Shown here piece by piece: positions 340-64,000 of a DNA stretch of 64,000 nucleotides; positions within the stretch are counted from its first letter, which is position 1; each line of letters starts with the position of its first letter. The stretch comes from a virus. The stretch covers positions 33,142-97,141 of the IMG/VR virus record IMGVR_UViG_3300024239_000013. One strand, given 5' to 3'. The notes beneath the pieces are model-generated. The model searched no databases and was not told the DNA's origin. It saw only the letters and a program-made list of their open reading frames with translations. A program made the position numbers and the translations under genes.

Positions 340-341
340 GA

Positions 342-656: not shown

Positions 657-660
657 AACG

Positions 661-5284: not shown

Positions 5285-5526
5285 GCGCAGATTCCATAGG
5301 TCTGAGAGTTTTTATTCAAATTCATATATCACAATAAAACAATCAGTATGGTATTTATTATACGCATTCTTAAATGCAGCAAAGTGATTTACAGAAACTC
5401 GCTAAAAAAAGATCTCTATGTCTTTATCCTAACAAAAACCGGACAATGTTTTAGAGATATATAAAACAGAACAAAATAAAAGGTGAATTGTATAAAAAGG
5501 CGGACAATAAAAAAATCCCAAAAAAT

Positions 5527-6354: not shown

Positions 6355-6368
6355 TATAAAGAAGCATA

Positions 6369-7064: not shown

Positions 7065-7080
7065 TATAATATAAAGCAAC

Positions 7081-7965: not shown

Positions 7966-7984
7966 TATAATATAAAGAAGCATA

Positions 7985-8869: not shown

Positions 8870-8883
8870 TATAAATCAGCATA

Positions 8884-9828: not shown

Positions 9829-9842
9829 TATAAATCAGCATA

Positions 9843-10727: not shown

Positions 10728-10741
10728 TATAAATCAGCATA

Positions 10742-11689: not shown

Positions 11690-11705
11690 TATAATATAAA
11701 AAAAC

Positions 11706-12653
11706 ATGATGAAAAGAATAGTAAATTATAAAACATTCATAAACGAAAGCTCTGGTGAAAATAACCTGACCCCAGAACAAATTGATTTCCTTAACAACTA
11801 TGTTAAGGGGAAATGGAAGTTTAATGTTGGAGTTGTTGATATTGATGGCGATTTTAGTTGTTTCGATAGAGGAATATCTGACTTTAAAGGAATAGTGTTT
11901 GGAAGGGTTACCGGTCATTTTGACTGTTCGGATAACAACTTAACATCATTAGAAGGTTGTCCAAAAGAGGTTGGTGGAAATTTTTATTGTCATTATAACA
12001 ACTTAACCTCATTAGAAGGTTGTCCAAAAGAGGTTGGCGGACATTTTTATTGTCATTATAACAACTTAACATCATTAGAAGGTTGTCCAAAAAAAGTGAA
12101 TGGAGATTTCGATTGCACAGATAACAACTTAACCTCATTAGAATTCGGTCCAAAAGAGATTAATGGACATTTTTATTGTTATGATAACAGCTTAACCTCA
12201 TTAGAATTTGGTCCCGAAAGAGTGAATGGAGATTTTGATTGTTCGAATAACAACTTAACCTCATTAGAATTTGGACCCAAAGAGGTTGGTGGTACTTTCG
12301 ATTGCTCACGTAATAACTTAAGCTCGTTAGAAGGTGTTCCTGAAAAGCTGAACGGAGTTTTTTATTTCTCATGTAACAAATTAACCTCATTAGAAGGTGC
12401 TCCTAAAAAACTAGGATCACAATTTTTTTGTGAGAATAATGAAGGGATATCAACCAAAACGATAAATCTTATATTTGACAAAATGGAAACCTCCAAATCT
12501 GATTATAAAACAGTTTTAAAATCTTTATGGAAAGAAATACCAATAGAAGATAAAATACTTTTATACACCCCAGATCTTGATTGGGTTGAAGAAGATGAAG
12601 GGTCTAAATTAGCTAAGTTAAAGAAGTATAGCAACATAAAGAAAATGATCTAA
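11706..12653 (+). CDS. targeting-sequence/LRR-like tandem family member 8
   Basis: Paralog architecture. Confidence 0.8.
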   Translation: MMKRIVNYKTFINESSGENNLTPEQIDFLNNYVKGKWKFNVGVVDIDGDFSCFDRGISDFKGIVFGRVTGHFDCSDNNLTSLEGCPKEVGGNFYCHYNNLTSLEGCPKEVGGHFYCHYNNLTSLEGCPKKVNGDFDCTDNNLTSLEFGPKEINGHFYCYDNSLTSLEFGPERVNGDFDCSNNNLTSLEFGPKEVGGTFDCSRNNLSSLEGVPEKLNGVFYFSCNKLTSLEGAPKKLGSQFFCENNEGISTKTINLIFDKMETSKSDYKTVLKSLWKEIPIEDKILLYTPDLDWVEEDEGSKLAKLKKYSNIKKMI

Positions 12654-12671
12654 TATAATATAAAGAGCACA

Positions 12672-13367
12672 ATGAAAAGAATAGTAAATTATAAAACTTT
12701 CATAAATGAAAGTGCAGGTGCAAGTACACTGACTTCAGAACAGATAGATTTCCTTAACAACTATGTTAAGGGGAAATGGAAGCTGAATGGTGAAGGATTT
12801 ATTGATATAGATGGTGATTTTAGTTGTTTCGATAAAGGGTTATCAGACTTTAGATGGATAAAATTTGGAAAAGTTACAGGGTATTTTTATTGTTCATATA
12901 ATGGATTGACATCATTAGAGGGAGCACCAAAAAAAGTTGGTTTGAGTTTTTATTGTCATAATAACAAATTAACATCATTGGATGGCTCTCCTAAAGAGAT
13001 TGGTGGAAATTTCGATTGCTCTGACAACAAATTAACCTCATTAGAATTCTCACCCGAAAGTGTAAAGGGGAGCTTTGATTGCTCATATAACAACTTAACA
13101 TCATTAGAATTTGGTCCTAAAGAAGTTGGCGGAGATTTACGATTTTCTCATAATGAGGGATTGTCAACCAAAACGATAGGTCTTATATTTGACAAAATGG
13201 AAAAGTCCAAATTGGACTATAAAACAGTTTTAAAATCTTTATGGAAAGAAATACCAATAGAAGATAAAATACTTTTATACAATGCGGATCTAGATTGGAT
13301 TGAAGGAGATGAAGCGGCTAAATTAGCTAAGTTGAATAAATATAGCAACATAAAGAAAATGATCTAA
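12672..13367 (+). CDS. targeting-sequence/LRR-like tandem family member 9 (short, fewer repeats)
   Basis: Paralog architecture. Confidence 0.8.
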   Translation: MKRIVNYKTFINESAGASTLTSEQIDFLNNYVKGKWKLNGEGFIDIDGDFSCFDKGLSDFRWIKFGKVTGYFYCSYNGLTSLEGAPKKVGLSFYCHNNKLTSLDGSPKEIGGNFDCSDNKLTSLEFSPESVKGSFDCSYNNLTSLEFGPKEVGGDLRFSHNEGLSTKTIGLIFDKMEKSKLDYKTVLKSLWKEIPIEDKILLYNADLDWIEGDEAAKLAKLNKYSNIKKMI

Positions 13368-13386
13368 TATAATATAAAGAAACATA

Positions 13387-14271
13387 ATGAAAAGAATAGT
13401 AAATTATAAAGCATTCATAAACGAAATCTCGAGTGAAAATAACTTGACACCAGAACAGATAGATTTCCTTAACAGGTATGTTGAGGGGAAATGGAAGTTG
13501 AATGCTGATGGAGCTGTTGATGTAGATGGCGATTTTAGTTGTTTCGATAAAGGGTTATCAGACTTTAAAGGAATAGTGTTTGAGAAGATTAGTGGAGATT
13601 TTGACTGTTCGGCTAACAGCTTAATATCATTAGAAGGTTGTCCAAAAGAGGTTAATGGATATTTTTATTGTCATTATAACAAACTAACCTCATTAGAATT
13701 TGGTCCTGAAAGTGTAGATGGAGATTTCGATTGTTCGAATAACAATTTAACTTCATTAGAATTTGGACCCAAAGAGGTTGGTGGAAATTTTGACTGTTCA
13801 TACAACAAATTAACCTCATTAGAAGTCTGTCCAAAAAAAGTTGGGGGAACTTTCAATTGTTCATTTAATAAATTAACATCATTAGAATTCAGTCCAAAAG
13901 AGGTTGGTGGTAGTTTCAATTGCTCATTTAACAACTTAACATCGTTGCAATTCTCTCCAGAGAAAGTTGATGCTTATTTTCATTGTTCAAATAACAACTT
14001 AACCTCATTAGAAGGGGTATCAAAAGAAGTTGGAGGGAATTTAAGATGTTTTTATAATGAAGGGCTATCAACCGAAACAATAAATCTTATATTTGACAAA
14101 ATGATAAAGTCCAAATTGGACTATTCTGATGCTTTAAAATCTTTATGGAAAGAAATACCAGTAGAAGACAAAGTACTTTTATACACACCCGATCTAGATT
14201 GGGTTGAAGAAGACGAAGCGTCTAAATTAGCTAAGCTAAAGAAGTATAGCAGCATAAAGAAAATGATCTAG
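13387..14271 (+). CDS. targeting-sequence/LRR-like tandem family member 10
   Basis: Paralog architecture. Confidence 0.8.
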   Translation: MKRIVNYKAFINEISSENNLTPEQIDFLNRYVEGKWKLNADGAVDVDGDFSCFDKGLSDFKGIVFEKISGDFDCSANSLISLEGCPKEVNGYFYCHYNKLTSLEFGPESVDGDFDCSNNNLTSLEFGPKEVGGNFDCSYNKLTSLEVCPKKVGGTFNCSFNKLTSLEFSPKEVGGSFNCSFNNLTSLQFSPEKVDAYFHCSNNNLTSLEGVSKEVGGNLRCFYNEGLSTETINLIFDKMIKSKLDYSDALKSLWKEIPVEDKVLLYTPDLDWVEEDEASKLAKLKKYSSIKKMI

Positions 14272-14285
14272 TATAAAGAAGAATA

Positions 14286-15233
14286 ATGAAAAGAATAGTA
14301 AATTATAAAACTTTTATAAACGAAAGTTCAGGTGCAAGTACACTGACAACTGAACAGATAGATTTCCTTAACAGGTATGTTAAGGGGAAATGGAAGTTGA
14401 ATGATAATGGAGTTGTTGATGTTGATGGTGATTTTAGTTGTTCCGATAAAGAAATATCAGACTTTAAAGGAATAATATTTGGAAAAGTTACCGGTCATTT
14501 CTATTGCTCAAGTAACAACTTAAGATCATTAGAAGGTTGTCCCAAAGAGGTTGGAGGGGGTTTCAATTGCTCACGTAATGAATTAACATCATTGGAAGGT
14601 TGTCCAGAAAGGGTGAATGGAGATTTCATTTGTTATGGTAACAACTTAACCTCATTAGAAGGTTGTACAGAAAGAGTGAATGGAGATTTCATTTGTTCGG
14701 CTAACAACTTAACCTCATTAGAAGGCTGCCCTAAGGAAGTTGAGGGATTTTTCAATTGTTCATTTAATAAATTAGCTTCTTTAGAAGGATGTCCTGGAGA
14801 AATTGGAAGTAGTTTTTATTGTTCGTATAACAAATTAACCTCATTAGAATTTGGCCCAGAAATGGTGAATGGAGATTTCGTTTGTTCAGATAACAAATTA
14901 ACCTCGTTAGAATTCAGTCCAAAAGAAGTTGGTGGTAATTTTATTTGTTCAGATAACAACTTAACATCATTAGAGGGAATATCAAAAAAAGTTGGGGGAT
15001 CTTTATGGTGTTCTTCTAATGAAGGACTATCAACCGAAACGATAGATCTTATATTTGATAAAATCATAAAGTTCAAATTGGACTATTTGGATGCTTTAAA
15101 TTTTTTATGGGAGGATATCCCAATAGAAGATAAAGTACTTTTATACACACCCGATTTAGATTGGATTGAAGGAGAGGAAGCGGTTAAATTATCTAATCTA
15201 AAGAAGTATAGTAAAATAAAGAAAATGATATAA
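14286..15233 (+). CDS. targeting-sequence/LRR-like tandem family member 11
   Basis: Paralog architecture. Confidence 0.8.
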   Translation: MKRIVNYKTFINESSGASTLTTEQIDFLNRYVKGKWKLNDNGVVDVDGDFSCSDKEISDFKGIIFGKVTGHFYCSSNNLRSLEGCPKEVGGGFNCSRNELTSLEGCPERVNGDFICYGNNLTSLEGCTERVNGDFICSANNLTSLEGCPKEVEGFFNCSFNKLASLEGCPGEIGSSFYCSYNKLTSLEFGPEMVNGDFVCSDNKLTSLEFSPKEVGGNFICSDNNLTSLEGISKKVGGSLWCSSNEGLSTETIDLIFDKIIKFKLDYLDALNFLWEDIPIEDKVLLYTPDLDWIEGEEAVKLSNLKKYSKIKKMI

Positions 15234-20969: not shown

Positions 20970-21438
20970 ATTTGGAATTTTAAATTATTTTTTCATTTAC
21001 CTCGTATAAGTAATTAGAATCCATCCAATTACTTGTTCTCTAAAACCAATATCATTCATTCCCTACTCATCTGCCAAATGTTTTAAATGAAGAGGAAGTT
21101 TTTGTGAAAGATTTTCTAGCTGAAGCCTAGTTGGTATCCCCCGGGAGAGAGCGTATAAAGATTGTAAGTCATCTAATAAAAATGATCAAGATTATTAAGG
21201 ACATGGACCATCTGGATCTATAATTTCCATATTATCATATTCTTCCTCCGTAATTATTACATATCCTTTATTCATAATCCACAAATGTACAGATTGCCAA
21301 TCTAAATCATTTTCTTCGAGAATTCTCTCCATTTTTTCGTTTAATTCTTCTTTTGACATTTTCTAAAAATTCACTTACATCAAGTGATAAGCTTTTAATT
21401 AATAATATTTTTTCTAATAGTTTATGTTGTTATAAAAT

Positions 21439-30405: not shown

Positions 30406-30975
30406 ATGAGTAGATTGGTAAAATTTGATAAATATAAATCAGAAATCAAAGAATCTGAGGAGGAAGAATTTACATATAGCCTTGATGAAATTTCGGATGC
30501 TCTTGATTCAGTGGAAGATGATCTAATTAATTACATAGAAATTCATAATATAGAAATTTTAGATGTTGACCACGACGAAACTCGCGACGGAGAGGTGGTA
30601 TTAAAGCCGATAATTGGTGAACATTCTGACCTTGTCTATGACTATAATACAGACCTAAATGATTTAATTTTAAAAGAGCTTTCAAAATCAGGTAATGACG
30701 GACTTAAACCCCGATTTAATTCTGACGTTATATTTAATGCTATAGATTTAGTTTCTTCTTACATTGGAAAATATGTAAATGATGTATCGATGGATGATAT
30801 AGAAATAGAATATGAAACAAGGTCCGGAAATTTTAATGAGATAACTGTAACATTCCTGATAAATCAGAAAAGTTTAAAAAATGTTGAGATTTTATCTATT
30901 AATTTCAAAGAATGGAAAAAAGAAGTTCTCGGACAAATAGTTAAAAGTATAACCAGAAAGTTTAAATACATATAA
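30406..30975 (+). CDS. hypothetical acidic protein
   Basis: 189-aa ORF. Confidence 0.5.
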   Translation: MSRLVKFDKYKSEIKESEEEEFTYSLDEISDALDSVEDDLINYIEIHNIEILDVDHDETRDGEVVLKPIIGEHSDLVYDYNTDLNDLILKELSKSGNDGLKPRFNSDVIFNAIDLVSSYIGKYVNDVSMDDIEIEYETRSGNFNEITVTFLINQKSLKNVEILSINFKEWKKEVLGQIVKSITRKFKYI

Positions 30976-31008
30976 AAAAAATCCCAATCAAGATTGGGAT
31001 TTTTTTTA
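30975..31008. terminator. bidirectional terminator hairpin (ATCCCAATC-AAG-ATTGGGAT flanked by A8 and T8)
   Basis: Perfect 8-9 bp stem between convergent genes. Confidence 0.6.
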
Positions 31009-31027: not shown

Positions 31028-32923
31028 TTATTTTTTGTCTTTCTTTTCTGATTTATCATCTTCTGACGAATCTTTCATAATATCTTTCTTTTGTGATTTT
31101 TCTTGAATTTGTTTTAAAAGCTCCATTCCGAGTAATCCTGAAATTGGTCCATTTCCAACATCGTTACCAGAGATTAAAATTTCTGGGATAATTTTAATTC
31201 CATTTGTACCAATCATTTCAGTAACTTTTAATTTTCCGAAATTATCTTCTCCCATAGCTTTAACCTGTTTCTCATAAGCTTCAGCAGTTGCTTTACCGAT
31301 AGCTGAGATTTTAGATGCCTCAGCATCGCCGGTTAATTTAATCTGGGCAGCTTCAGCTTCAGCCATTAGTTTCTTAGCTTTGGATTCAGCTCCAGCTTTT
31401 AACTCAAGAGCTTTAGCTTCTCCTTCTGATTTTTTAACAGCAGCTTCAGCTTCACGTTGTGAGATTTCTACCGATTGCTGAGCTGATACCATTTGACCTT
31501 GCATATTTGCTAATGCTTTTGCTGATTCTAGTGTCTTACGTTGGTCTTGTGCTTTTCTCTGGGTTTCGAATGTAATCTCCTCTTCCTGAGCAATCTTACG
31601 ATCTGTTAAGGTTTTCATTAAAGATTCTGGCGGAACAATATCACCGATCAAGGTATCTACTGCATGAACGTTATATTCTTCTAGTACTTTAGAAATACTT
31701 ACTTTAGCTGCGTCTTGACGTTGTTGTCTTGTAGATAAAAATGAAATAACATCTGAATCTTGAGCGGAGTTTCTGAAATAGTTCCCGATTGTAGGTTCAA
31801 GAACCTGAGATACTAAATTTGACATAGATCCAAATCTTGCAATAACTTTAGGTGCTTCGTTAGAAGGAATGTGAATAATCTGAGATACGTCTAGATTGAA
31901 TGGAAATCCATCTTTAGATCTAACCGTAATTGTGCTCAGGTTTTTATCCAGATCATGAGATTCCGAACGAGCTGTAGCCCAATTGAGTACTAGGTTTGTT
32001 GTAGGAACTATTTCAATTTTCTGAGTATATGGATTGATAGCGTATTTACCTGGATCTAGTGGAGTTATCCATACGCCCCTTTGCCCTTTCTTAACTATAT
32101 TTCCGTGTTTAAATCCATCACCAGTTGTGTCTTCTCCTTCCTCCCCTACATAAGAAATAACTACACCGACGTGACCGATTGGAATCTGAGTCATTTCTCT
32201 CTTTTCAATTTCTACTGCCCAGGGGTTTAGTGAATATGATCCTGCTTGAATAACCTGTACCTGTAAACCTCTCTGACCTCCGTTTTCTAAGAATTTATCA
32301 AAATTTTGAAAGTTGTTGTGTCCTTCAATAGGTGAACCTGCAATAGATCCAGGAGATAGCGGGATACCGTCTAATGCTGTTACCACTCCGACCATTCCAT
32401 CTTCAATGTAAGTAATGTCTGCGATAAGAACATCAAATAAAAATTTATTGATACGATACACCCCGTTATTAAGATATCCTACTTGTTTACCCCTTTGCCC
32501 CCCTTTTGTCAAGAAAGCCCTACTGTCTTGGAAATTATCACAGTCTATATTTCTTGCTAAAATTGACCCAGTTGGAAGAGGTAACCCGTCTTTAGCAGAA
32601 AGTAATCCAATTTTACCTCTAGGTATTTCTGTTAAATCTGCCATTTCAACTGAGTATTGCCAAATCCAATATCCCCAATATAAACCGGGTGCTAAAGTGT
32701 CTGCCTGAAACCCTGCTTCTCCATTAAGAGCGATGATTTTTCCGTCGGGTAATGATTTATTTTCACCAAAAAGAACAAATTTCTTGGTAACGAGACCAAT
32801 TTTATCTTCTGGGATTATAACCATACCAAAGAAAACCCTCAGTGTAAATTTATAAAATACAATCAATAATAATGGAACTAATACCCATCCGAATTTTAAT
32901 AATAAGCTTAATGCTAAATCCAT
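31028..32923 (-). CDS. flotillin-like SPFH/band-7 membrane protein
   Basis: N-terminal transmembrane helix; SPFH-like core; long Ala/Glu/Lys-rich coiled-coil (AEAEAAQIKLTGDAEASKISAIGKATAEAYEKQ) as in bacterial flotillins such as YqiK. Confidence 0.65.
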   Translation of the reverse strand: MDLALSLLLKFGWVLVPLLLIVFYKFTLRVFFGMVIIPEDKIGLVTKKFVLFGENKSLPDGKIIALNGEAGFQADTLAPGLYWGYWIWQYSVEMADLTEIPRGKIGLLSAKDGLPLPTGSILARNIDCDNFQDSRAFLTKGGQRGKQVGYLNNGVYRINKFLFDVLIADITYIEDGMVGVVTALDGIPLSPGSIAGSPIEGHNNFQNFDKFLENGGQRGLQVQVIQAGSYSLNPWAVEIEKREMTQIPIGHVGVVISYVGEEGEDTTGDGFKHGNIVKKGQRGVWITPLDPGKYAINPYTQKIEIVPTTNLVLNWATARSESHDLDKNLSTITVRSKDGFPFNLDVSQIIHIPSNEAPKVIARFGSMSNLVSQVLEPTIGNYFRNSAQDSDVISFLSTRQQRQDAAKVSISKVLEEYNVHAVDTLIGDIVPPESLMKTLTDRKIAQEEEITFETQRKAQDQRKTLESAKALANMQGQMVSAQQSVEISQREAEAAVKKSEGEAKALELKAGAESKAKKLMAEAEAAQIKLTGDAEASKISAIGKATAEAYEKQVKAMGEDNFGKLKVTEMIGTNGIKIIPEILISGNDVGNGPISGLLGMELLKQIQEKSQKKDIMKDSSEDDKSEKKDKK

Positions 32924-55288: not shown

Positions 55289-55708
55289 TTATAATTCTAT
55301 TTCAAATCTATCTTTCATTTTTCTTATAGATTCTTCAGGAACCTCGTGAACATTAGTTCCCCCGTGTCTGTTCTCTATAATTATACTAGTTACCATATAA
55401 CCATATTCCTTTGCCAATTTGAAATATGGTTCCATTTCCCATTCTTGTGTAAATGTATTGGAAACTACTATTTCTGGATAATATCGAGAGTTTTGTTTAT
55501 TCTCTTTCATTCTATTCTCAACCTCATTTCTACACCATTCATGTGCAGCTTTTAATTTAGAAGGATTGAAATTATATTCCCCAGTTTCTTTATCGTAGAA
55601 ATATTTGTCAGCCTCGCATATTTCACAATCATTCCAAAGATGTCTTGCGAATGTAGATTTACCAGAGCCAGGTACACCTCTAATTAAAAATAGTGTAGGA
55701 TTCAACAT
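55289..55708 (-). CDS. polynucleotide 5'-kinase (T4 Pnk kinase-domain-like P-loop protein)
   Basis: LIRGVPGSGKSTFARHL versus T4 Pnk TIGCPGSGKSTWAREF; LAKEYGYMV versus T4 FAKEYGWKV. Confidence 0.65.
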   Translation of the reverse strand: MLNPTLFLIRGVPGSGKSTFARHLWNDCEICEADKYFYDKETGEYNFNPSKLKAAHEWCRNEVENRMKENKQNSRYYPEIVVSNTFTQEWEMEPYFKLAKEYGYMVTSIIIENRHGGTNVHEVPEESIRKMKDRFEIEL

Positions 55709-55741: not shown

Positions 55742-56386
55742 TTAATTTTCCATGTGATGGTCTTTAGGTAGGACAAGAGTCTTTATTGGTCTGCCTTTTA
55801 AAATACCTAAGATCTCGTCTAGACTATATGGCTTTAAATCGTTACCATCAACTCCTACATCCATTGCTCTCCCCGAATTTACCTTTAAATTAGGTGGAAG
55901 ATGAACGTGTCCATGCAGATGTGGAACTCCCCTCCCCATATCTTCCCAGCTAGCAACAGGGAAGTGACTGCAGAAAAATTTGTATTTTTCAGTTTCTTTA
56001 TCCCGAGGTCTTCTTATTTCTAAGATATCATAGAATGCAACTTCTTTGAATATCTCTTGAATACCTTCTCTATTATTTTTTATGTGATGATCGTGATTTC
56101 CAAGAAATATGATAATATTCTTACATTTTATTTGAGATCTAAATTGTTCTATGGATTCAAATCCACCAAAACTCCAATCCCCTAAGTGGACTAAATAATC
56201 ATTCTCGTCAACATATAAATTTATTCCGTTAACAAGAGCGGAATTCATTTCCCCTAAGCTGTGGAAATCCCTAGTTCTGCTGGATTTATCACTCCAAGTT
56301 GAAACTCCTCGACAAATATTCTGGTGTGAATAGTGAGTATCGCTAGTAAACCAAATTTTCTGGTTCTTTTCTAATGTTATTTTCAT
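55742..56386 (-). CDS. calcineurin-like metallophosphoesterase (candidate 2',3'-cyclic/3'-phosphate end-healing phosphatase)
   Basis: WFTSDTHYSH, GDWSFGG, GNHDHH and HGHVH metallophosphoesterase motifs; sits between the kinase and Rnl1 genes, as in bacterial Pnkp. Confidence 0.6.
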   Translation of the reverse strand: MKITLEKNQKIWFTSDTHYSHQNICRGVSTWSDKSSRTRDFHSLGEMNSALVNGINLYVDENDYLVHLGDWSFGGFESIEQFRSQIKCKNIIIFLGNHDHHIKNNREGIQEIFKEVAFYDILEIRRPRDKETEKYKFFCSHFPVASWEDMGRGVPHLHGHVHLPPNLKVNSGRAMDVGVDGNDLKPYSLDEILGILKGRPIKTLVLPKDHHMEN

Positions 56387-56392: not shown

Positions 56393-57490
56393 CTAATCTT
56401 CTGTTTTATTCCAAAATGGTTTTTGATATTTGGGTCTTATCATTTTCCAGATTTTTTCTGAATAGTCATTCCCATCATAGAACATAAATAAAATACTTGT
56501 TATATCTCTATCTTGTTCTTTTGCCCATTCTGCAAATTCCTTCCTTCCTTTATCTTTTTCAAAATCTGGTCTTTTTTCAAAGAAGCTCTTGTAAATATCG
56601 TTTACTCTTTCCTCTATTGATGAATAGTTATATTTCAATTCTTTTATTATTTTCTTCACCCAAAGATCAAATTCATCAGGAACCCTATCCAAAAAATTAC
56701 CAAGATCCTGTTTATTTTTTAAGAGCTCCCAGATATCCACATTCGAGAAGTTTGTCAATAGTCTATGTAATCTAACATATTCCTCGCCTTTTATTTTCAT
56801 TCTGAATCCGGAAGAAAATCTAATAACGAAACCCTCGGAATTTGAAGATATTATTTTTTTAAGCTCTTTGTAATTATTAAGACCGTCATATTTTTTAACT
56901 ACTTTAAACCCTATAGTTCCTAGAATACCCTGGTTTTTTAAGTTCATTAAGCTTTTTTCGTCAGAGTGAATATCATATTCATATCCATCTAAATTATCAA
57001 TAACTGAAAGTAAAATGATATCCTCAAAATCATAGCTAACAACTATTCGATTTTCTGGGTAGATAATCTCGAATAAATAAGTGCAATCTTTCAACAAATC
57101 CTTATAATGATATTTCTCCAATATAGATCTTCCCCTTATCGCTTGCTCTGAAGTGAATGATCCTTTTGTAGCAAAATGCCATTCCCCTTCGTAATTGAAA
57201 AGTATACCCAAGGATCCGTCCATCTTCTCGAAAACATCAAAATTTTCGTTCGGAATATCGCTAGAATCCAATTCTTCTAAATTAAAGAATTTAGGAAATG
57301 TCCTTGCAACGACATTTCCTTCCCTATCAAGAACCGTCCCTCTCATATTAAGAGTGATTTCATCCCACTCTTTAGAGAATTGGCACTCTCTTGAATAGTT
57401 ATAAATATCCAAAGGTAATGATGGATGAGAATTTTTTTCTAAAAGACCTCTTTCAATATAGGAATTGAGAATATTTATATCGTATTTCAT
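56393..57490 (-). CDS. RNA ligase 1 (T4 gene 63 / Rnl1-like tRNA repair ligase)
   Basis: Collinear with T4 Rnl1: MRGTVL (CRGIMF), FPKFFNL (PMEKFFNL), motif I EKMDGSL (KEDGSL), ATKGSFTSEQA (FKSKGSIKSEQA), EIIYPENRIVVSY. Confidence 0.75.
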   Translation of the reverse strand: MKYDINILNSYIERGLLEKNSHPSLPLDIYNYSRECQFSKEWDEITLNMRGTVLDREGNVVARTFPKFFNLEELDSSDIPNENFDVFEKMDGSLGILFNYEGEWHFATKGSFTSEQAIRGRSILEKYHYKDLLKDCTYLFEIIYPENRIVVSYDFEDIILLSVIDNLDGYEYDIHSDEKSLMNLKNQGILGTIGFKVVKKYDGLNNYKELKKIISSNSEGFVIRFSSGFRMKIKGEEYVRLHRLLTNFSNVDIWELLKNKQDLGNFLDRVPDEFDLWVKKIIKELKYNYSSIEERVNDIYKSFFEKRPDFEKDKGRKEFAEWAKEQDRDITSILFMFYDGNDYSEKIWKMIRPKYQKPFWNKTED

Positions 57491-57789
57491 TTCATATTAT
57501 TATAGTCGCAAATGTATGATATTATTTCGGGATTAAAAAAAATTAAAGATAAAGTTTTACTTTTTTAATGATTATTTATATAAGAATGAATGCAGGTAAC
57601 TTTCAATTTATATTTTATCCACATAACAATAACCATTTCAATTAAGGTCGTTTGTAATTTTAAATTTCAGAAAAGGAACGACACATACATCTATCAATTA
57701 AAAGTAATTCTAAAAAAAATTAATAGAATTTAAGATAGATATATTTTTTAAAAATACGCGTGAACAACTTCTATTTTCATATTCACGTT

Positions 57790-58095
57790 TTATCTGTAAT
57801 ATTTTTTCTTTAGATTAATTTCAAGCGTATCTGTAAATGTTTTATCGCAAACATTTACATCATAATAACCAATATGCCATTCGTGTTTACCGTTCACGAA
57901 GTTATATCCATAGTGGTACCCAAATTTATTTTCAACGTGAGAATCGACACATTTTCCAATAATCCTATATTCTCTACCGTTTTTAATGAAATTCGGTTTA
58001 CGTGTAATTTCACATCCAACCAATAACGATAATGTCATTACATAGAAAAGTAATCTCGTATTTAATACTTTATTATTGTTCAATAGTATTTTCAT
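57790..58095 (-). CDS. putative lipoprotein (signal peptide with LVGC lipobox)
   Basis: N-terminal LLFYVMTLSLLVGCEI. Confidence 0.5.
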   Translation of the reverse strand: MKILLNNNKVLNTRLLFYVMTLSLLVGCEITRKPNFIKNGREYRIIGKCVDSHVENKFGYHYGYNFVNGKHEWHIGYYDVNVCDKTFTDTLEINLKKKYYR

Positions 58096-58097
58096 AT

Positions 58098-58535
58098 TTA
58101 TTTGATTGTATTTTCGTTTATAAAAAAACCAAAATCAACTAAATCTTCAATATTTTTCATGTTATCCCTAAATAAAAATTCAACACCTTCTTCATAGGAA
58201 ATAAATCTTCCTATTGATATGTCATTATTGTGTACTAGATACCCATTTTTGTCTATTTTAAATCCTTTAAACAAAACTTTTTCTTTTGCTCTTAAATAAT
58301 TATAAATTTCATCATTGTAGGCATCATCATAACCTTCAATATAATTTTCAGGTTTTTCTAAAACATTACCATCCTCGTCACAAGGAACAAACATTTCTAG
58401 TTTTAAAGATTGTTTTAGAAATTCCACATATCTTTTCACTGTATTAATATGTCTTATGGCTTCTTCCTGCGTTGGAATATTTTCTAATAATTCAAAATGA
58501 TCTAAAACAAAATCAGAAATTGATATTAGTTTCAT
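58098..58535 (-). CDS. hypothetical protein, paralog of 59687..60067. ATG start at 58535; the track used an upstream GTG
   Basis: Shared LIS(I/M)(S/T)DFVL...FLKQ(S/P)LKLEMF(V/F)PCDEDGN(V/I)L; preceded by the conserved hairpin motif. Confidence 0.5.
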   Translation of the reverse strand: MKLISISDFVLDHFELLENIPTQEEAIRHINTVKRYVEFLKQSLKLEMFVPCDEDGNVLEKPENYIEGYDDAYNDEIYNYLRAKEKVLFKGFKIDKNGYLVHNNDISIGRFISYEEGVEFLFRDNMKNIEDLVDFGFFINENTIK

Positions 58536-58543
58536 AATTATCA

Positions 58544-58568
58544 CCACTTACTACAAGTGGGAAGTTTT
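58544..58568 (-). repeat. conserved hairpin motif copy 1 (CCACTT-ACTAC-AAGTGG-GAAGTTTT), 8 nt upstream of the 58535 start codon
   Basis: One of 6 copies (also 59387-59410, 60575-60598, 60969-60995, 61316-61344, 61735-61763). Confidence 0.6.
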
Positions 58569-58572
58569 AAGG

Positions 58573-58758
58573 TTAAAAAGGACAATATTCTTTTTTAGGT
58601 TTGTCCTGTAATTCTACATAATCTCTTTTTATTTTCTCTGAGATTGCTTTTCTTACAAAATCTGAAACCTTTATATTTCTGGATTTCAATTTCTCTAAAG
58701 TTCTTTTTTGGGTAGCTGAAATTTTAAGCGTAAAAACTTCGGTATATAAAGGTCTCAT
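58573..58758 (-). CDS. small ribbon-helix-helix-like DNA-binding protein
   Basis: VFTLKISATQKRTLEKL...VSDFVRKAISEKI resembles Arc/CopG-type folds. Confidence 0.35.
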   Translation of the reverse strand: MRPLYTEVFTLKISATQKRTLEKLKSRNIKVSDFVRKAISEKIKRDYVELQDKPKKEYCPF

Positions 58759-58803
58759 AATGATTTTGTATTACTTTTTATTCGTCTATATAGATGTTAT
58801 ACG

Positions 58804-59265
58804 CTATATTATTTTTCCCATCCTCTTTTCAAGTAATTGCGGATTTTCATAAATATTTCCTATTTTTTTATAAAGTCTATTTTCAAGTGGAAAAGTCCAG
58901 AACATACTTTCATCCAGTTCTTTTATATCCCCATCTTTATATTTCTCAAACTCATAATCTAACAAAGCTCCGAACATTCCCCATTCTTTAATCCAAACTA
59001 CAACAGTAATATTTCCTTCTTTATCCTCAAGAATATCACTTTCCCATATAAATTTAAATTCAGTGTCTTCAAATCCTGTCTTTTCCATTGCTATTATTTC
59101 AGCAAGATTTGCCCACTTATATTCTCCTGTTCCGTCTGGAATATAAAGAGCTTTTCCGTTTCCTACGATGGCATTGTATCTCATTTTTTTGCCATCCCAT
59201 AATCTGTAATTAGGTCTTTTCATTTTATAATTTTTTAGTATTAATATTACACGCTTCAACAGCAT
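58804..59265 (-). CDS. hypothetical protein
   Basis: 153-aa ORF. Confidence 0.5.
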   Translation of the reverse strand: MLLKRVILILKNYKMKRPNYRLWDGKKMRYNAIVGNGKALYIPDGTGEYKWANLAEIIAMEKTGFEDTEFKFIWESDILEDKEGNITVVVWIKEWGMFGALLDYEFEKYKDGDIKELDESMFWTFPLENRLYKKIGNIYENPQLLEKRMGKII

Positions 59266-59378
59266 CTGTTAATCCTTGTGAATAACAACTATAACAAAGA
59301 GTTTTTAAATCAAATTCAGGCGTTTCTGGTTTAAAATCTTTAAACTTTGATTGAAATCTTTGTTCATCCAAATACATA
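59226..59378 (-). CDS. small hypothetical protein (about 50 aa, MYLDEQRFQSKFKDFKPETPEF...) preceded by the conserved hairpin motif
   Basis: Hand-translated; below the track cutoff; the motif sits 8 nt upstream of its ATG. Confidence 0.3.
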
Positions 59379-59444
59379 TTAATAAACACTTACTACAAGT
59401 GGGAAGTTTTAATATTAATTGTTTTTATTTCGTCTATTTTTGTG

Positions 59445-59690
59445 TTATAAGCAATTATTACCAGACATTCGGTTAATTCTAATCTGTAGGTTTTCTCGCT
59501 CTTCATATAATTCCGACAAACGTTTATTGTAGTCAAAATCTTTGTTGGTTTCCATCGAAACTTCAAATCTGTGAATACCATTTAAAACAATCGTTTCACC
59601 CTTTTTAATGCGAAAAATAACATTTATAGCACCATTTATTATTTCAACCTTGTTTTGCATGTTGATTAATAATCTGTTTTTTTTTTTCAT
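59445..59690 (-). CDS. hypothetical protein
   Basis: 81-aa ORF. Confidence 0.4.
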   Translation of the reverse strand: MKKKNRLLINMQNKVEIINGAINVIFRIKKGETIVLNGIHRFEVSMETNKDFDYNKRLSELYEERENLQIRINRMSGNNCL

Positions 59691-60067
59691 AGTCCTATTT
59701 GTTTAATTGCTGATTCGGTTAAATAAATTGGTGTTATTGTATTAATAATATCTGATAAAGATTCTATTGTTGAGAATGTATTCACTAACCATTTAGCTTG
59801 AGCAATAGGTATATTTTCAAATAAAACTTTTTCTTTAGAATTATTGTATTGTATTTGTTTAAATTCTTTTTCACTTCCTGCATCTTTATCAGAAGCAAAT
59901 GGATTATTTAAAATATTTCCATCTTCGTCACAAGGAAAAAACATTTCTAGTTTTAAAGGCTGTTTTAGAAAGTTAGCATATTTTACAATTGAATCTCTTT
60001 GTTTTATATCTGTAATATCTTGATTAAGAACAAAATCTGTCATTGATATTAATCTAAATGTTTCCAC
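59687..60067 (-). CDS. hypothetical protein, paralog of 58098..58535
   Basis: Shared motifs (see 58098..58535). Confidence 0.5.
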   Translation of the reverse strand: METFRLISMTDFVLNQDITDIKQRDSIVKYANFLKQPLKLEMFFPCDEDGNILNNPFASDKDAGSEKEFKQIQYNNSKEKVLFENIPIAQAKWLVNTFSTIESLSDIINTITPIYLTESAIKQIGL

Positions 60068-60567
60068 GTTTTTCGGTTAATTATATTATATATATTACGA
60101 TATGTTACTTTGTATTTTAGTGCAAGTTCAGTTGGTTTTAATGTTGAATTTCTAATTTCAATTATATCTTTTTCTGTTAATTTGCTTTGATGGTGTTTTT
60201 CACCTGTCATAGTATTTGAAATTGACTTTTTATGCTTATCTGTTATAGAAGTCCCTTTTCTAGCATTTATAAATTTTTCTGATACACCTTTATTAGATAT
60301 ACGTTTTTTAGACTCTAATCCTATTTTGTTTTTAGATTCTATTGTATGTTTATAGCCTTCTGGATGGTCATAATTATAATGACATTTTCTACAAAGCTTT
60401 ATATAGTTTTCAACATTCTTTTCATGAAACTTGCCATTTATTAATGCATTATCCAATATAGATTCTGTATCTCCACATCTTTCACAGGCTTTTATGTGTT
60501 TCATTCTTCTTCTAATCCAATCATGAATATTTCTATAATCTTTTGAGTTCGTTGATATTAGTTTCAT
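60049..60567 (-). mobile_element. free-standing HNH homing endonuclease with a NUMOD-like DNA-binding C-terminus
   Basis: CERCG...H...N...LCRKCH HNH core; C-terminal basic helix-turn-helix-like repeats. Confidence 0.55.
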
Positions 60568-60569
60568 AA

Positions 60570-60959
60570 TTATATCCTCTTATAACAAGTGGGGTTTTTA
60601 ACAAGTTCTATGTTTGATTGTTTGTAGTATCTAAGGGATTTTAATTTTTCTTGGATACGAGATTCTACATCAGAAAAATCAATTTCTTTAAATAGATCAT
60701 GAATTATGTCAGTATCGTCCCCTGTTATCTCATTCCACAATTCCCAAGTTGAATCTGCTAATAAATCTCGAATTTGATTTTCGTCTATTCCATTAAAAAT
60801 AATAGGAGTTTTTTCAGTTGCCATTGGAGATTTATCGAAATTAATAGCATCAATATCATCAGAAATATTTTTTAGTCTTTGGTGACCTTCATCAGGATAT
60901 ACATAATATTTATATCCATTATTTATTGCTTCTTGTAATGTCATTTTTATATTTTTCAT
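60570..60959 (-). CDS. hypothetical acidic protein
   Basis: 129 aa; hairpin motif upstream. Confidence 0.5.
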   Translation of the reverse strand: MKNIKMTLQEAINNGYKYYVYPDEGHQRLKNISDDIDAINFDKSPMATEKTPIIFNGIDENQIRDLLADSTWELWNEITGDDTDIIHDLFKEIDFSDVESRIQEKLKSLRYYKQSNIELVKNPTCYKRI

Positions 60960-60975
60960 TTTATGCTTCCACTTA

Positions 60976-61305
60976 CTACAAGTGGGAAGTTTTTGATTCG
61001 TGTAATAATCTATCTATTTCAGCTACTATTAGTGCTCCTGCTTTTTGTAAATCTCTAATTCGTAAATTAGTATTATCTGTATAATCTCTTTTTAACCATT
61101 CTAAATCAAATGGCCAGAAATGTAAAAACATATCATTTCCCCATTCATTATCAATAAAACTAATCATATCATTAGTCATAGCATATGCACAGGCCGCATT
61201 TGCCAATTCTCCTTCTTTATGTTCTGCATCATGTTCATAAGTCCATCCTTCTATTTCAATTTGTCTTTGCCTTTCTTCAGCAATTAATTGTATTTCTGTT
61301 TTCAT
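60976..61305 (-). CDS. hypothetical protein
   Basis: 109 aa; hairpin motif upstream. Confidence 0.5.
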   Translation of the reverse strand: MKTEIQLIAEERQRQIEIEGWTYEHDAEHKEGELANAACAYAMTNDMISFIDNEWGNDMFLHFWPFDLEWLKRDYTDNTNLRIRDLQKAGALIVAEIDRLLHESKTSHL

Positions 61306-61351
61306 TTTATTAAATCCACTTACAAATTCTAGTGGGAAGTTTTAGTTTTGT

Positions 61352-61726
61352 TTATCCATCTAGCCAATCAGACCTATCATAACATAAATAAGAGTGGTCT
61401 TCTGGTTCTTCATATTTACAATTATTACAAAAAGCCTCAGAAAATTCTTCGTGAGTTGCTAATTCACCACAACCGCAGTAAAGTCTTTCTATTGAACCTT
61501 TTTTTATTTTTAACCTAATATTTCTATATTTAAAACAATCATCTATATTTTCAGGATAACCATTTTTATCAATATCTCCTTCAACATAGTCTTTGTTATC
61601 GTACATTTCTTCAACGTTCATAAAATCTTGACCATAAGACCTAACATTTCCCCAAACTTCATCTCCAATTTCTATATGAACATAATCTCCTATTACTTCT
61701 TGTTCTGATATTGCTTTTACAAACAT
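61352..61726 (-). CDS. hypothetical Cys-containing protein
   Basis: 124 aa; hairpin motif variant upstream. Confidence 0.5.
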   Translation of the reverse strand: MFVKAISEQEVIGDYVHIEIGDEVWGNVRSYGQDFMNVEEMYDNKDYVEGDIDKNGYPENIDDCFKYRNIRLKIKKGSIERLYCGCGELATHEEFSEAFCNNCKYEEPEDHSYLCYDRSDWLDG

Positions 61727-61780
61727 ATTTTAATCCACTTCGCTATGCCTAGTTGGAAGTTTTAAATTTTTCTAACTCAA

Positions 61781-62032
61781 CTAAGGAATCCATGTACAAA
61801 TAGCAACTTTGTCCCAATTTTTATTTTCAAGTAAAGTCTTATCATCAGACCATTGACCTAAATGATTTCGTTCGCCACTCTCTTTATCCCACATCCAATC
61901 ACAAAATTCATCCTCAAAACCAGTACCATTACCAGCATTAACAGTAACTCCATGAAATCTTGACAAGTCACCATCTACCAATAAAAATTGTAATGGGCTT
62001 TCAATGTCATTGTAAATAATTAAAGTTTTCAT
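61781..62032 (-). CDS. hypothetical protein
   Basis: 83-aa ORF. Confidence 0.45.
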   Translation of the reverse strand: MKTLIIYNDIESPLQFLLVDGDLSRFHGVTVNAGNGTGFEDEFCDWMWDKESGERNHLGQWSDDKTLLENKNWDKVAICTWIP

Positions 62033-62214
62033 TTATTAATTCTTTTGTCTTTTTCTAAAATTTCTTTTTTGTGTTCGAGGACTTTTCTAGCTTCTGTAGA
62101 AATTCCTTTATTTTTCTTTAAAGCATCAACAATTTTTCCCCATTCATATACATTTGAATGACTTAATGATGCTGTTCTTACTTGCCCTTTAAACCAATAA
62201 TTAATTGCTAACAT
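62029..62214 (-). CDS. hypothetical protein
   Basis: 61-aa ORF. Confidence 0.35.
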   Translation of the reverse strand: MLAINYWFKGQVRTASLSHSNVYEWGKIVDALKKNKGISTEARKVLEHKKEILEKDKRINK

Positions 62215-62253
62215 AATTTTTCAATATTTAAAATTGTATAAAATTCTTTTGAT

Positions 62254-62436
62254 TTAGTGGCATTTCATTAACTTTCTATTGAATTCTTGAGTATGGTTTA
62301 TTAATGGGTGGTTAAATTCAATTTCGTTAAACTTATTTTTATCAATATCAATTCGGATACAACACTTCATCACATCAACATTACTGAATACACGTTCTTC
62401 TATTTCGTCATTTTTTTGGAATAAATTTAACGTCAT
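62254..62436 (-). CDS. hypothetical protein
   Basis: 60-aa ORF. Confidence 0.3.
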   Translation of the reverse strand: MTLNLFQKNDEIEERVFSNVDVMKCCIRIDIDKNKFNEIEFNHPLINHTQEFNRKLMKCH

Positions 62437-62656
62437 TTAATTCATTGTACTCCTTTAAAGAAAAAGGTTTCACCTTATAATTTTGTCTTAATTTACCATA
62501 ATCAAAAACCATTCTTATACCTCTATGGGCCAAATAATTATAATCTCTTGTCATATAAACACAGGGATATAATATCCTCTGATCCATATAAATAAAACCA
62601 GTATCTAAAATTGATTTTAATCTTTTTAAGTTTAGTATATTATGATATAGTTCCAT
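62408..62656 (-). CDS. hypothetical protein
   Basis: 82-aa ORF. Confidence 0.4.
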   Translation of the reverse strand: MELYHNILNLKRLKSILDTGFIYMDQRILYPCVYMTRDYNYLAHRGIRMVFDYGKLRQNYKVKPFSLKEYNELNDVKFIPKK

Positions 62657-62707
62657 AAATTAAATGTTAAAATACTACACACAGATCCAAAATTTTTACT
62701 AGAAATA

Positions 62708-62989
62708 CTAAACAATATTTGCCACACCATTGGTAATTATATAATGAGTTTTACACCCAAACCTATGAAGTATTGACGGACTTATGGTCGCTTTACCGTT
62801 ATTAATGGTTAAGTTCCATTCACCTTCTTTAATAGGTATTGGTGTTTGCTTTCCACAACCACAAGGACAAAGGTGATTTGCTATTTTATATTCTTTTGAA
62901 TAATATAGTTTACCTGATTCCATTTCATTGAATCCTGGAATAAATTCTACTTCAATAAGTTCTAAAGGAACTTTCTGTAATGTTTTCAT
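62708..62989 (-). CDS. hypothetical zinc-ribbon protein (CPCGCGK...)
   Basis: 93-aa ORF. Confidence 0.45.
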   Translation of the reverse strand: MKTLQKVPLELIEVEFIPGFNEMESGKLYYSKEYKIANHLCPCGCGKQTPIPIKEGEWNLTINNGKATISPSILHRFGCKTHYIITNGVANIV

Positions 62990-63012
62990 TTTAATATTTT
63001 TTTAAATAAAAA

Positions 63013-63297
63013 TTAACCCCATATAGAATCTTCCAATTTTTCAACATCTTCTAGACTTCTAATATCAACATATTTAATCCTAATCCCATTATGAAAAACT
63101 GACACATGAAAGGATTTATTGTCGGTAACCATTCTAAAAGAAATGTCATGACCATAGAGCCCATTTTTAGAATATTGTAAATCAAATAATGATGTTGCAA
63201 CTTTTCTTAGTTCGTTATGATTTAGTTCGTTATGATTCATACTTTTCTTGTATATGTTAATATCGATATTTTTTCTAAAAATAATTTGACTATCCAA
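63013..63297 (-). CDS. hypothetical protein
   Basis: 94-aa ORF. Confidence 0.45.
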   Translation of the reverse strand: MDSQIIFRKNIDINIYKKSMNHNELNHNELRKVATSLFDLQYSKNGLYGHDISFRMVTDNKSFHVSVFHNGIRIKYVDIRSLEDVEKLEDSIWG

Positions 63298-64000
63298 TAA
63301 GTTTTACCCGAGAGGCTATCTTGAATCCAGCAATTGTATGAACTTCATGTTCACTAGTTCCAAAGTAATTAGTCACAAGATAATTGCCGGGTTTTGGAGA
63401 AATCTTGACAACTGATCCGGATGGTTCTTTTACATCACTGACATTTCCAAACATGTATCTCCACATATCACATGAAATTGAACCGCAATAAATCCAACCC
63501 AATTTTGGAAGTTCTTCACTGGCCTCGAACTCCATTCCAGAATTATCTCCTTGACCTTCAGCCCAACGATAAGTCTCTTCTATGATTATGAATTCTTGTT
63601 TATCACTAGACAAATAGATATCAATTGACGTATTTCCCAGTTGTTGGTAGCCAATATTGTCATTGGCATGAAACTCAGCAATACGTCTTCTTCCAACTAT
63701 AGTATTCAAAGAAAAGTAATTATAAGAAAAGTCTTTTTCAGCTTCGTCTAGTTTAGCAATGTGATCTTTAAAGAAGTTAGCAAAGACGATTTCTCCATTT
63801 ACTTTAAATTCAAATGACTGGGGTAAGTTATGTTCTAATTCGCAACGATCTTCCTGGTATTCATAAAACCATTTACTTGCTGGAGATTCTTTGGTATTGA
63901 GTTCAGCAACAAAACAAATAATCTTAGACTCTAGTGGATCATACCTCCAACCGAGTGATCGATTACAATTTGCACATGGTGAATCCAGTTCTATTTCCCT
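63290..64000 (-). CDS. hypothetical protein, N-terminally truncated by the window end (the frame stays open to 64000). The track 63290..63709 ORF uses an internal TTG
   Basis: Hand translation upstream of 63709 continues without a stop (...CANCNRSLGWRYDPLESKIICF...NTIVGRRR...). Confidence 0.45.
   Translation of the reverse strand, partial: REIELDSPCANCNRSLGWRYDPLESKIICFVAELNTKESPASKWFYEYQEDRCELEHNLPQSFEFKVNGEIVFANFFKDHIAKLDEAEKDFSYNYFSLNTIVGRRRIAEFHANDNIGYQQLGNTSIDIYLSSDKQEFIIIEETYRWAEGQGDNSGMEFEASEELPKLGWIYCGSISCDMWRYMFGNVSDVKEPSGSVVKISPKPGNYLVTNYFGTSEHEVHTIAGFKIASRVKLIG

Follow-up and report, generated by a model that had tools for sequence, protein, structure and literature searches.

The stretch of DNA analysed here, hereafter the window, comprises 64,000 nucleotides (nt) of a viral genome (positions 33,142 to 97,141 of IMG/VR record IMGVR_UViG_3300024239_000013), and features between positions 57500 and 64000 a block of small minus-strand genes in which a 26-nt hairpin-containing element recurs directly in front of start codons. 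On the messenger RNA (mRNA) the element begins with a single-stranded box, UAAAACUUC, followed by a 6-bp stem (CCACUU/AAGUGG) with a loop of 5–10 nt, an A/U-rich spacer of 8–10 nt, and the AUG. Six copies, w1 to w6, were read in the block, all on the minus strand, which is the gene-sense strand, and each with an ATG 8–10 nt on its 3′ side. The minus-strand form AAAACTTCCCACTT-GTAGT-AAGTGG, or a near variant of it, accounts for all six. The copies, together with a possible seventh elsewhere in the window, are the following:

58544–58569, minus strand: w1, canonical TAAAACTTCCCACTTGTAGTAAGTGG; 8-nt spacer (58536–58543), ATG at 58535; 46.2 bits, E = 3.4e-10.
59386–59411, minus strand: w2, final stem base changed from G to T; 8-nt spacer, ATG at 59377; 42.3 bits.
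60576–60601, minus strand: w3, degenerate (AAAACCCCACTTGTTATAAGAGG; TTAAAAACCCCACTTGTTATAAGAGG), the most degenerate of the short-loop copies; 8-nt spacer, ATG at 60567 of an endonuclease-like gene; 28.2 bits, E = 5e-5.
60969–60994, minus strand: w4, canonical, stem lengthened by GGAAG/CTTCC pairing; 9-nt spacer, ATG at 60959; the TAG of the loop is the stop of the upstream open reading frame (ORF); 44 bits.
61316–61344, minus strand: w5, long-loop class CCCACT-AGAATTTGT-AAGTGG with a 9-nt loop insert; 10-nt spacer, ATG at 61305; 28.7 bits, E = 3.4e-5.
61735–61764, minus strand: w6, the most diverged, CCAACT-AGGCATAGCG-AAGTGG with a 10-nt insert; 8-nt spacer, ATG at 61726; 16.5 bits, E = 0.1; a sister of the same loop class lies at L160:5394.
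21371–21396, minus strand: possible seventh, diverged copy, AAAAGCTTATCACTTGATGTAAGTGA, 11 nt 5′ of the ATG of a gene of 54 amino acids (aa) at 21195–21359; weak, E = 0.11.

An original prediction, made from the letters of the window, had placed a hairpin at these six sites, 8 nt upstream of the starts of six consecutive small genes. The sites and the strand were borne out, with an ATG downstream of each copy. The spacing is indeed close and fixed, but it ranges from 8 to 10 nt and is not constantly 8 (8, 8, 8, 9, 10 and 8 nt from w1 to w6), and the genes are not consecutive, since the element is carried by 6 of the 11 genes within 57790–61726, so that each "cassette" would comprise 1–3 genes. 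The 25-mer with up to 3 mismatches has 3 matches versus 0.00 expected, and the 9-mer AAAACTTCC has 8 versus 1.46 expected (shuffle maximum 5). The remaining 58 kb of the window yielded no copies in a covariance-model search, barring the weak candidate at 21371–21396, which falls in a second small-gene block at about 20.4–24.6 kb. Locus L160, which reaches 9 kb beyond the window end, adds five further copies, making 11 copies in 12.3 kb.

The element is used across unrelated phages of one bacterial family, the Flavobacteriaceae. The exact 25-mer is present in 11 IMG/VR contigs, always with an ATG 8–9 nt further on and in unrelated flanks. Looser patterns and a genome scan gave, among the matches listed, further copies in prophage regions of Flavobacteriaceae, the hosts being Paenimyroides ummariense, P. 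baculatum, Myroides pelagicus, M. odoratimimus, two more Myroides strains and several Flavobacterium isolates or metagenome-assembled genomes. Several copies are carried by the prophages of Myroides sp. 1354 (NZ_JACAGN010000015) and Flavobacterium sp. JP2137 (NZ_CP191647, around 1.90 Mb). These loci carry HNH, small and large terminase and replication-type genes, and therefore represent ordinary tailed temperate phages. A covariance model built from the 26-nt core alone, with neither spacer nor ATG, was searched over 354 kb and gave 57 distinct matches with E ≤ 0.01, spread over 31 loci of phages or prophages (cited below by number, e.g. L003), all with an ATG 8–10 nt downstream, its seeds having been chosen from copies already known to precede an ATG. 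With three weaker copies of the same build the total is 60, spaced 9 nt (39 copies), 8 nt (17) or 10 nt (4) from the start codon against a background ATG rate of 5%. The expected link of the motif to gene starts thus held for 60 of 60 model matches, each in gene-sense orientation with its ATG at 8–10 nt, and in 58 of the 60 the ORF that begins there is 38 codons or longer.

The genes behind the element are small accessory ORFs, and no protein family is common to all loci within the flanks compared. At the sensitivity used, GenBank phages (INPHARED) held no copy of the canonical, CCGATT or long-loop form, giving chance 17-nt matches only; Rfam returned 0 matches at E ≤ 1 within 57500–64000; and in the literature searched neither the sequence itself nor Flavobacterium phage stem-loops were found. 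A variable-gap genome-wide scan gave mostly noise among the matches listed. An unrelated multi-copy repeat, ACTTAAACTTCCCACTTRCAAAAGTGGGCTTGTACCTTGAAAA, was encountered in Lactobacillus, Faecalicatena, Butyrivibrio and Lachnospiraceae genomes (L045, L047, L056, L058, L062, L068, L072, L076 and many others). It was rejected as a member of the family, its core AAACTTCCCACTT..AAGTGG being shared by chance, and is probably the end of an insertion sequence.

The box, positions 1–9 of the element (TAAAACTTC), is 85–100% conserved in a family that was first gathered with patterns fixing parts of the sequence. The stem pairs positions 10–15 with 21–26, usually as CCACTT/AAGTGG. Fully compensated stems are CCGATT/AATCGG (seven loci), TCACTT/AAGTGA and CCTATT/AATAGG, and there are also U.G and G.U wobble versions. 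As counted on an alignment fitted to the model, 93.5% of cells are paired and four of the six pairs have changed on both sides (20 cells); none of 500 shuffles matches the observed pairing, and slid controls drop to 28–65% paired. Compensatory pairs across independent copies, the generic test of a structured cis-regulatory RNA, are thus found, with the same reservation on the fitted alignment. When the three central positions of each arm were left free, with C10–G26 and two U–A pairs staying fixed by the pattern, CGA/TCG, CTA/TAG, U.G and G.U variants were recovered amid random noise. Canonical and variant stems stand together in single phages (L003, L007, L011, L064, L129), and loop length also differs among copies of one genome; the loop classes are GUAGN (37 of 60 copies), GRAUUUGU, GGAUUAG and GGCAUAGMG.

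Between hairpin and start codon the spacer varies in sequence and is fixed in length, and 73% of copies carry A at −3, 75% at −6; A at these positions is a positive determinant of initiation measured in Flavobacterium johnsoniae (PMC6847099). Folding in a 100-nt context gives a mean hairpin probability of 0.82, with box and spacer open and a stem folding energy of −5 to −8 kcal/mol, and the pairing of positions −10 to −15 is about 0.9, compared with roughly 0.35 for the phage's other gene starts. These copies define a structured, strand-specific element in register with the start codon, and purifying selection on it is much stronger than on the neighbouring genes. The ORF upstream stops at a TAA at the 5′ end of the element in 11 of 46 scorable cases and at the TAG of the loop in 13 (two of them at an ACUAG variant), and proteins of the latter kind therefore end in ...KTSHL. 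Most other upstream ORFs stop within 25 nt upstream of the element, and a few copies are preceded by 56–174 nt of non-coding sequence.

The gene content around the element was compared across related phages, and homology breakpoints between otherwise unrelated phages coincide with it. A unit composed of w1 and the gene upstream of it, which encodes a ribbon-helix-helix (RHH)-like protein (58530–58800), shares 95% identity with L005 and 90% with L010. Homology breaks off at the ATG or where the element ends on its 3′ side, and different genes follow. This unit was found in four other contigs, with a different downstream gene every time. The 109-aa gene behind w5 has 75% DNA identity to L001, with homology beginning at the element. 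Identical 25-mers adjoin unrelated genes, three genes of the phage have the element and their first 16 nt, ATGAAACTAATATCAA, in common, and cassette proteins shared by the jumbo phage under study and Myroides/Flavobacterium prophages are 37–98% identical, the element being essentially identical. At L008 a perfect copy is followed by a 2-codon ORF and a terminator, an arrangement that looks like the remnant of a cassette. A larger rearrangement is evident from two close relatives from other metagenomes (L162 and L163, flanks 96–97% identical), which are without a 4.5-kb segment holding four copies. The segment is flanked by paralogous 96-aa genes of 78% DNA identity (L160 3610–3900 and 8415–8700) and the insertion/deletion (indel) arose by recombination between the paralogues and not at the element.

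The genes and repeats around the six copies are listed below:

58098–58535, minus strand: 145-aa gene behind w1, paralogue A of a three-member family.
58573–58758, minus strand: RHH-like gene, 61 aa, directly upstream of w1; weak DUF6290/RelB-like matches.
58747–58811, minus strand: second repeat "D6", about 65 nt, with the perfect palindrome TCTATATAGA; upstream of the RHH gene.
59225–59377, minus strand: 50-aa ORF behind w2, followed by a YopX-family gene (58804–59226).
59687–60043 (ORF 59687–60067), minus strand: paralogue B, 118 aa from its ATG; no element of its own, directly behind the endonuclease-like gene.
60049–60567, minus strand: zinc-ribbon, endonuclease-like gene, 172 aa, behind w3; CxxC...CxxCH pattern.
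60570–60959, minus strand: 129-aa ORFan behind w4.
60976–61305, minus strand: 109-aa gene behind w5; homologues (37–70% at the amino-acid level) behind the same element in unrelated prophage or viral contigs.
61352–61726, minus strand: 124-aa ORFan behind w6.

The duplicated gene pair already noted in this block is real: paralogues A and B are 42% identical (E = 5e-18), and a third paralogue lies just beyond the window. Of the gene called an HNH homing endonuclease in the original prediction, the endonuclease part is weakly favoured by the CxxC...CxxCH pattern and by a match of the C-terminal half only to a PHROG "endonuclease" family (E = 3.5e-4, the sole family match), whereas Pfam gave no HNH match. 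The first 16 nt of paralogue A (ATGAAACTAATATCAA) are common to two other element-following genes. The endonuclease-like gene shares this start with two paralogous genes, and it overlaps the start of paralogue B, which still reads ...RLISMTDFVL; the endonuclease-like gene was therefore apparently inserted just behind an element and its start codon. It appears to have taken over the codons MKLIS of paralogue B, which has the look of a homing-type insertion. The D6 repeat has three copies in the phage (58747–58811; L160 3899–3963; L160 5325–5389), and at both copies outside the window the RHH ORF has been deleted and D6 now adjoins the element. D6 is probably an operator or promoter of the RHH protein. 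Genes neighbouring the block encode a BubE-family protein (62708–62989), a T4-type RNA ligase 1 (56393–57490), a metallophosphatase (55742–56386) and an AAA_33 kinase-like protein (55289–55708), all on the minus strand, and may constitute an RNA-repair set.

The window sits on a metagenomic contig of 276,364 bp (ENA ERZ27245855 k141_97055), has about 30% G+C and features no transfer RNA genes. Its source is a jumbo phage of a Bacteroidota host. One window protein is 64% identical to a protein of an uncultured 642-kb phage, and no near relative of the window was found among GenBank phages (INPHARED). Host-type Bacteroidota −7 boxes (TAnnTTTG) precede some operons of the phage, with leaders of about 25 nt. 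Contig position equals 286183 minus window position, and window positions 1–9819 map past the end of the contig; the genome is probably circular or circularly permuted, or else the window derives from a longer assembly. Far from the block, ten tandem paralogous genes (231, 294 or 315 aa; 6369–15233, plus strand), 64–69% identical to the first, adjoin lysozyme/SLT genes. Their N- and C-terminal parts are conserved and the number of leucine-rich-type repeats (CSxNxLTSLEGxPKEVGGxF) differs; the ten form a diversifying tandem family. Between the convergent genes 30406–30975 (plus strand) and 31028–32923 (minus strand), at 30978–31007, stands an intrinsic terminator that is perfect and bidirectional, A8-TCCCAATC-AAG-GATTGGGA-T8.

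Several familiar signals can be set aside as explanations of the element. As a host promoter it was rejected because the −7 box is not enriched and the host-type boxes of the phage sit elsewhere: TAnnTTTG occurs up to 100 nt upstream of 2 of the 60 copies against a background of 7%, and sigma-70-like sites are likewise not enriched (47 versus 43.8 expected). As an intrinsic terminator it was rejected because the sense hairpin has no U-tract, whereas the terminator at 30978–31007 of the same genome has a U8 tail; in a terminator scan only the antisense strand of w4 passes (1 site versus 1.8 expected). The 3′ half of the stem does lie geometrically at the Shine-Dalgarno (SD) position, as had been noticed at the outset, but a functional role as SD sequence was rejected, since the arm varies with compensation in the 5′ arm (AAGUGG, AAUCGG, AAUAGG, AAGUGA) and ribosomes of Flavobacteriia ignore SD sequences (PMC6847099). 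Mimicry of ribosomal RNA (rRNA), namely of the 3′ strand of 16S helix 44 (17 of 26 positions identical), is a chance likeness, equalled by 352 of 2000 shuffles.

Among known systems the closest in behaviour are the start-associated sequences (SAS) of Cluster K mycobacteriophages, which are one-orientation repeats 3–7 bp before the mostly ATG starts of non-structural genes, with a 13-bp consensus, GGGATAGGAGCCC, that includes the SD core AGGAG; half of the SAS follow inverted repeats whose spacers vary (extended SAS, ESAS), and upstream stops sometimes fall inside the SAS (PMC3203893). Their function was unknown in 2011 (PMC3203893) and still untested in 2025 (PMC12699233). The analogy is one of behaviour only: both are short, asymmetric, multi-copy repeats in one orientation, a few bases before nearly always ATG starts of non-structural, variable genes of unrelated families, with an upstream stop sometimes inside the repeat, and neither is known from the host chromosome proper. 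The sequences are unrelated (GGGATAGGAGCCC versus UAAAACUUC plus hairpin), and SAS has its SD core at 3–7 nt, whereas the present element is without SD, stands at 8–10 nt and serves an SD-blind host. SAS is also limited to one phage cluster, whereas the element is present in a 276-kb jumbo phage as well as in small temperate phages whose hosts belong to several genera of Flavobacteriaceae. The ESAS arms, 17 bp and imperfect, show no RNA-type covariation, and a DNA-binding protein was proposed for them because they do not covary as RNA pairs; the 6-bp stem of the element, in contrast, has compensatory changes.

The original prediction had likened the element to the promoter-early stem-loop (PeSL) units of T4-type phages, which are about 100 bp long and consist of a strong promoter of the host sigma-70 type, an AT-rich tract upstream of it, a G/C-rich stem-loop that ends transcription, and an SD sequence (PMC2839356; PMC4122927). 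Both are conserved intergenic stem-loop units that form direct repeats directly before ORFans in hyperplastic regions. In PeSLs insertions, deletions and replacements fall at the units, and recombination between units is the proposed vehicle of shuffling; in the present case three inter-phage homology boundaries lie at the element, and the one indel between close relatives lies in paralogous genes instead. The likeness holds for a start-linked hairpin-plus-box in a plastic small-gene block, for breakpoints at the element and for relatives differing by the 4.5-kb indel with its four copies, and fails for the host-type promoter and the U-tract: the element, at 26 nt, is without host-type promoter, terminator tail or SD, and its strict distance to the ATG is not a feature of PeSLs. 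A PeSL-like role in shuffling is reasonable, and the element is best described as a start-associated or junction repeat that belongs to neither the SAS nor the PeSL family.

Other comparisons are more distant. Phage translational operators, such as the MS2 and PP7 coat-protein hairpins and the T4 RegA sites, overlap the SD or AUG and are specific to one phage's own protein, RegA acting on many early messages; they too are RNA hairpins or sequences located where ribosomes bind phage messages, and their recognition in trans sets the level of translation. The hairpin described here, however, ends 9 nt before the AUG, has the same sequence in unrelated phages, and its cognate protein is hypothetical. 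Lambda-type nut sites (boxA plus boxB) similarly join a conserved single-stranded box, after a few bases, to a short hairpin (5–6-bp stem, loop of about 5 nt) in early operon RNA, and in one unit the order of promoter-like palindrome, small DNA-binding gene and element resembles pR-cro-nutR; yet nut sites occur once or twice per phage with no fixed relation to start codons, whereas the element has 11 copies in 12 kb, each 8–10 nt from an ATG. Integron attC sites, imperfect inverted repeats in which the arms are conserved and the centre varies, also separate promoterless small ORFs in same-orientation arrays, and their cassettes are shared between unrelated genomes. They are 57–141 bp long, stand at the 3′ end of the cassette, need an adjacent IntI integrase and attI, and have no fixed spacing to the next start. 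No recombinase was listed in the Pfam tables for the annotated 40 kb of the parent contig, and no integrase of this kind was seen near the array.

We propose, with about even confidence, that the repeat acts in cis on the mRNA and governs translation initiation of portable accessory genes in Flavobacteriaceae phages, with a secondary role as recombination linker. The original prediction had also named an operator for a translational repressor and an RNase processing site as options, and of these the translational one is preferred here. The main argument is the spacer fixed at 8–10 nt, which suggests action on initiation, since no such register is needed by promoters whose internal spacing varies, nor by nut-type, processing or recombination sites. 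The hairpin would end at about −10, just outside the mRNA stretch held in the 30S channel, where box and hairpin may be read by a trans-acting factor usable by all these phages; the invariance of the box and the conservation of the loop classes speak for a reader that recognises sequence. Since the phages differ greatly and have no protein in common in the flanks compared, the simplest candidate would be a component of the host (the ribosome platform, bS1 or an RNA-binding protein), and a widely shared phage protein seems less likely. Downstream starts would then be switched on or off as a group, whatever their genomic context. Where the upstream ORF stops within the element, the hairpin would be opened and the two cistrons could become coupled; regulated or coupled initiation is as likely as enhancement. 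In addition, the near-identical 26-nt sequence could double as a homology patch at which cassettes are exchanged, deleted or invaded. This linking side effect is partly shown: it follows from a conserved 26-mer in recombination-proficient phages, and the junctions in its support come from few cases.

Among the alternatives, the element might be an RNA processing or stability site, an endoribonuclease of host or phage cutting in or near the UAAAACUUC box and the 5′-proximal hairpin protecting the downstream cistron, so that a long operon would yield messages of separate stability. A stem-loop preceded by an A/U-rich single strand, located between cistrons inside operons, fits this idea, as does a box conserved in sequence next to a stem conserved in structure only, and phage precedents exist in the RNase III sites of T7 and the RegB and RNase E sites of T4. 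Known processing sites, however, do not have to keep a set distance from the start codon, RNase III would need a longer stem, and no nuclease is common to the loci in the flanks compared; this explanation is unlikely. Slightly more doubtful is a pure recombination linker, a 26-mer devoid of any role in expression that persists by letting cassettes move through homologous recombination, as proposed for PeSLs and "boundary sequences". The breakpoints at the element, the same RHH-plus-element unit in front of five different genes, the clustering of all copies as direct repeats in a plastic region, the vestigial ORF behind a perfect copy at L008 and the cassettes common to jumbo phage and small prophages would all be expected of such a linker. 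Recombination requires identity only, though, and leaves unexplained the fixed 8–10 nt to the ATG over non-conserved spacers, the compensatory changes in the stem and the strict sense orientation; moreover, the only indel between close relatives recombined in the paralogous 96-aa genes and not in the element.

Three further explanations concern transcription. With the element at about −35 to −10 from the A of the ATG, a promoter for a non-standard polymerase or sigma factor would produce nearly leaderless mRNAs, and a transcript start a few bases before the AUG would account for the fixed distance; AAAC-N16-GT resembles extracytoplasmic function (ECF)-type promoters, a hairpin with a 3-nt loop recalls the virion RNA polymerase promoters of N4, many copies precede small early-type genes as T4 early promoters do, and no host sigma-A promoter is attached. 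This is quite improbable in view of the 5–10-nt loop variation in one genome, which alters box spacing, of stems that covary with wobble pairs included, and of the small likelihood that a jumbo phage and ordinary HNH/TerS/TerL prophages share a special polymerase; transcripts of F. johnsoniae are also mostly leadered (PMC6847099). A hairpin-stabilised transcriptional pause at the start codon, at which RNA polymerase waits until the ribosome loads or arrives, would draw on the 8–10-nt spacing, which together with the AUG puts the RNA 3′ end (the U-G of the AUG) 11–13 nt from the stem, and upstream ORFs that end in or near the hairpin would allow an arriving ribosome to release the pause. The stem of a class I pause hairpin ends at the same 11–13 nt before the RNA 3′ end. 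The idea is purely geometric, however, and leaves the invariant 5′ box and the conserved loop classes unexplained; to our knowledge pause hairpins have not been studied in Bacteroidota, and we consider this very improbable. Hardly credible, finally, is a double-stranded DNA operator for a dimeric repressor, of the kind proposed for the Cluster K ESAS inverted repeats and bound, for example, by the neighbouring RHH protein. The element is an inverted repeat with arms conserved in sequence, and w1 and four related copies each have an RHH gene immediately before them. Half-site spacing, though, ranges over 5–10 nt, arm sequences differ within one phage, and the element is asymmetric, with its box on one side only and always in gene sense. 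The RHH protein is itself an unlikely binder, its gene being missing from most loci and having its own palindrome, TCTATATAGA, in D6. Stems and loop lengths that vary within one phage argue against a dimeric operator and a two-box promoter alike.

Some observations weigh against a role in translation initiation. Duplexes of box, loop or whole element with the 16S and 23S sequences of a Flavobacteriia-like rRNA operon are no better than those of shuffles, the trans-acting factor is hypothetical, and activation, repression and coupling cannot be told apart by sequence. The host rule measured in F. johnsoniae is an unstructured region from −20 to +20 (PMC6847099); a stable hairpin at −10 to −26 contradicts this rule, so the element could be inhibitory. 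Coupling cannot explain the copies preceded by 56–174 nt of non-coding DNA. Some homologous genes have the element and others lack it, e.g. the 96-aa gene at L160:3319 versus L010, so expression does not require it. Ascertainment accounts for part of the box conservation, because the collecting patterns prescribed parts of the sequence, although the scans with the model and with a free stem agree with the pattern-collected picture, and strand-specific wobble support is thin (2–3 G.U pairs versus 1 C.A).

It is tempting to go further and to regard the element as a portable, SD-independent module for ribosome recruitment or control specific to Flavobacteriaceae, in which a pre-formed hairpin would take the place of the SD helix and the box would be read by a host factor; this stronger proposal is possible, if rather unlikely. 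Diverse phages would attach such a module to newly acquired genes and so obtain translation or co-regulation in any context. How Bacteroidota ribosomes choose start codons without Shine-Dalgarno pairing is still an open question (PMC6847099), and the element is a short, sharply defined RNA signal in exact register with the AUG on dozens of unrelated genes, far better conserved than those genes. It represents a second, independent case of "start-associated" repeats after the mycobacteriophage SAS, as well as a non-T4 case of a conserved junction sequence tied to cassette exchange, one that links a jumbo phage to temperate phages of the ordinary kind. In practice, the 26-mer marks cassettes of accessory genes in phages of Flavobacteriaceae, and it is a candidate component of expression tools for these bacteria. 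If the proposal of a portable module is true, an SD-blind phylum would have its first defined signal for start-site selection, in the form of a natural "plug-and-play" translation cassette.

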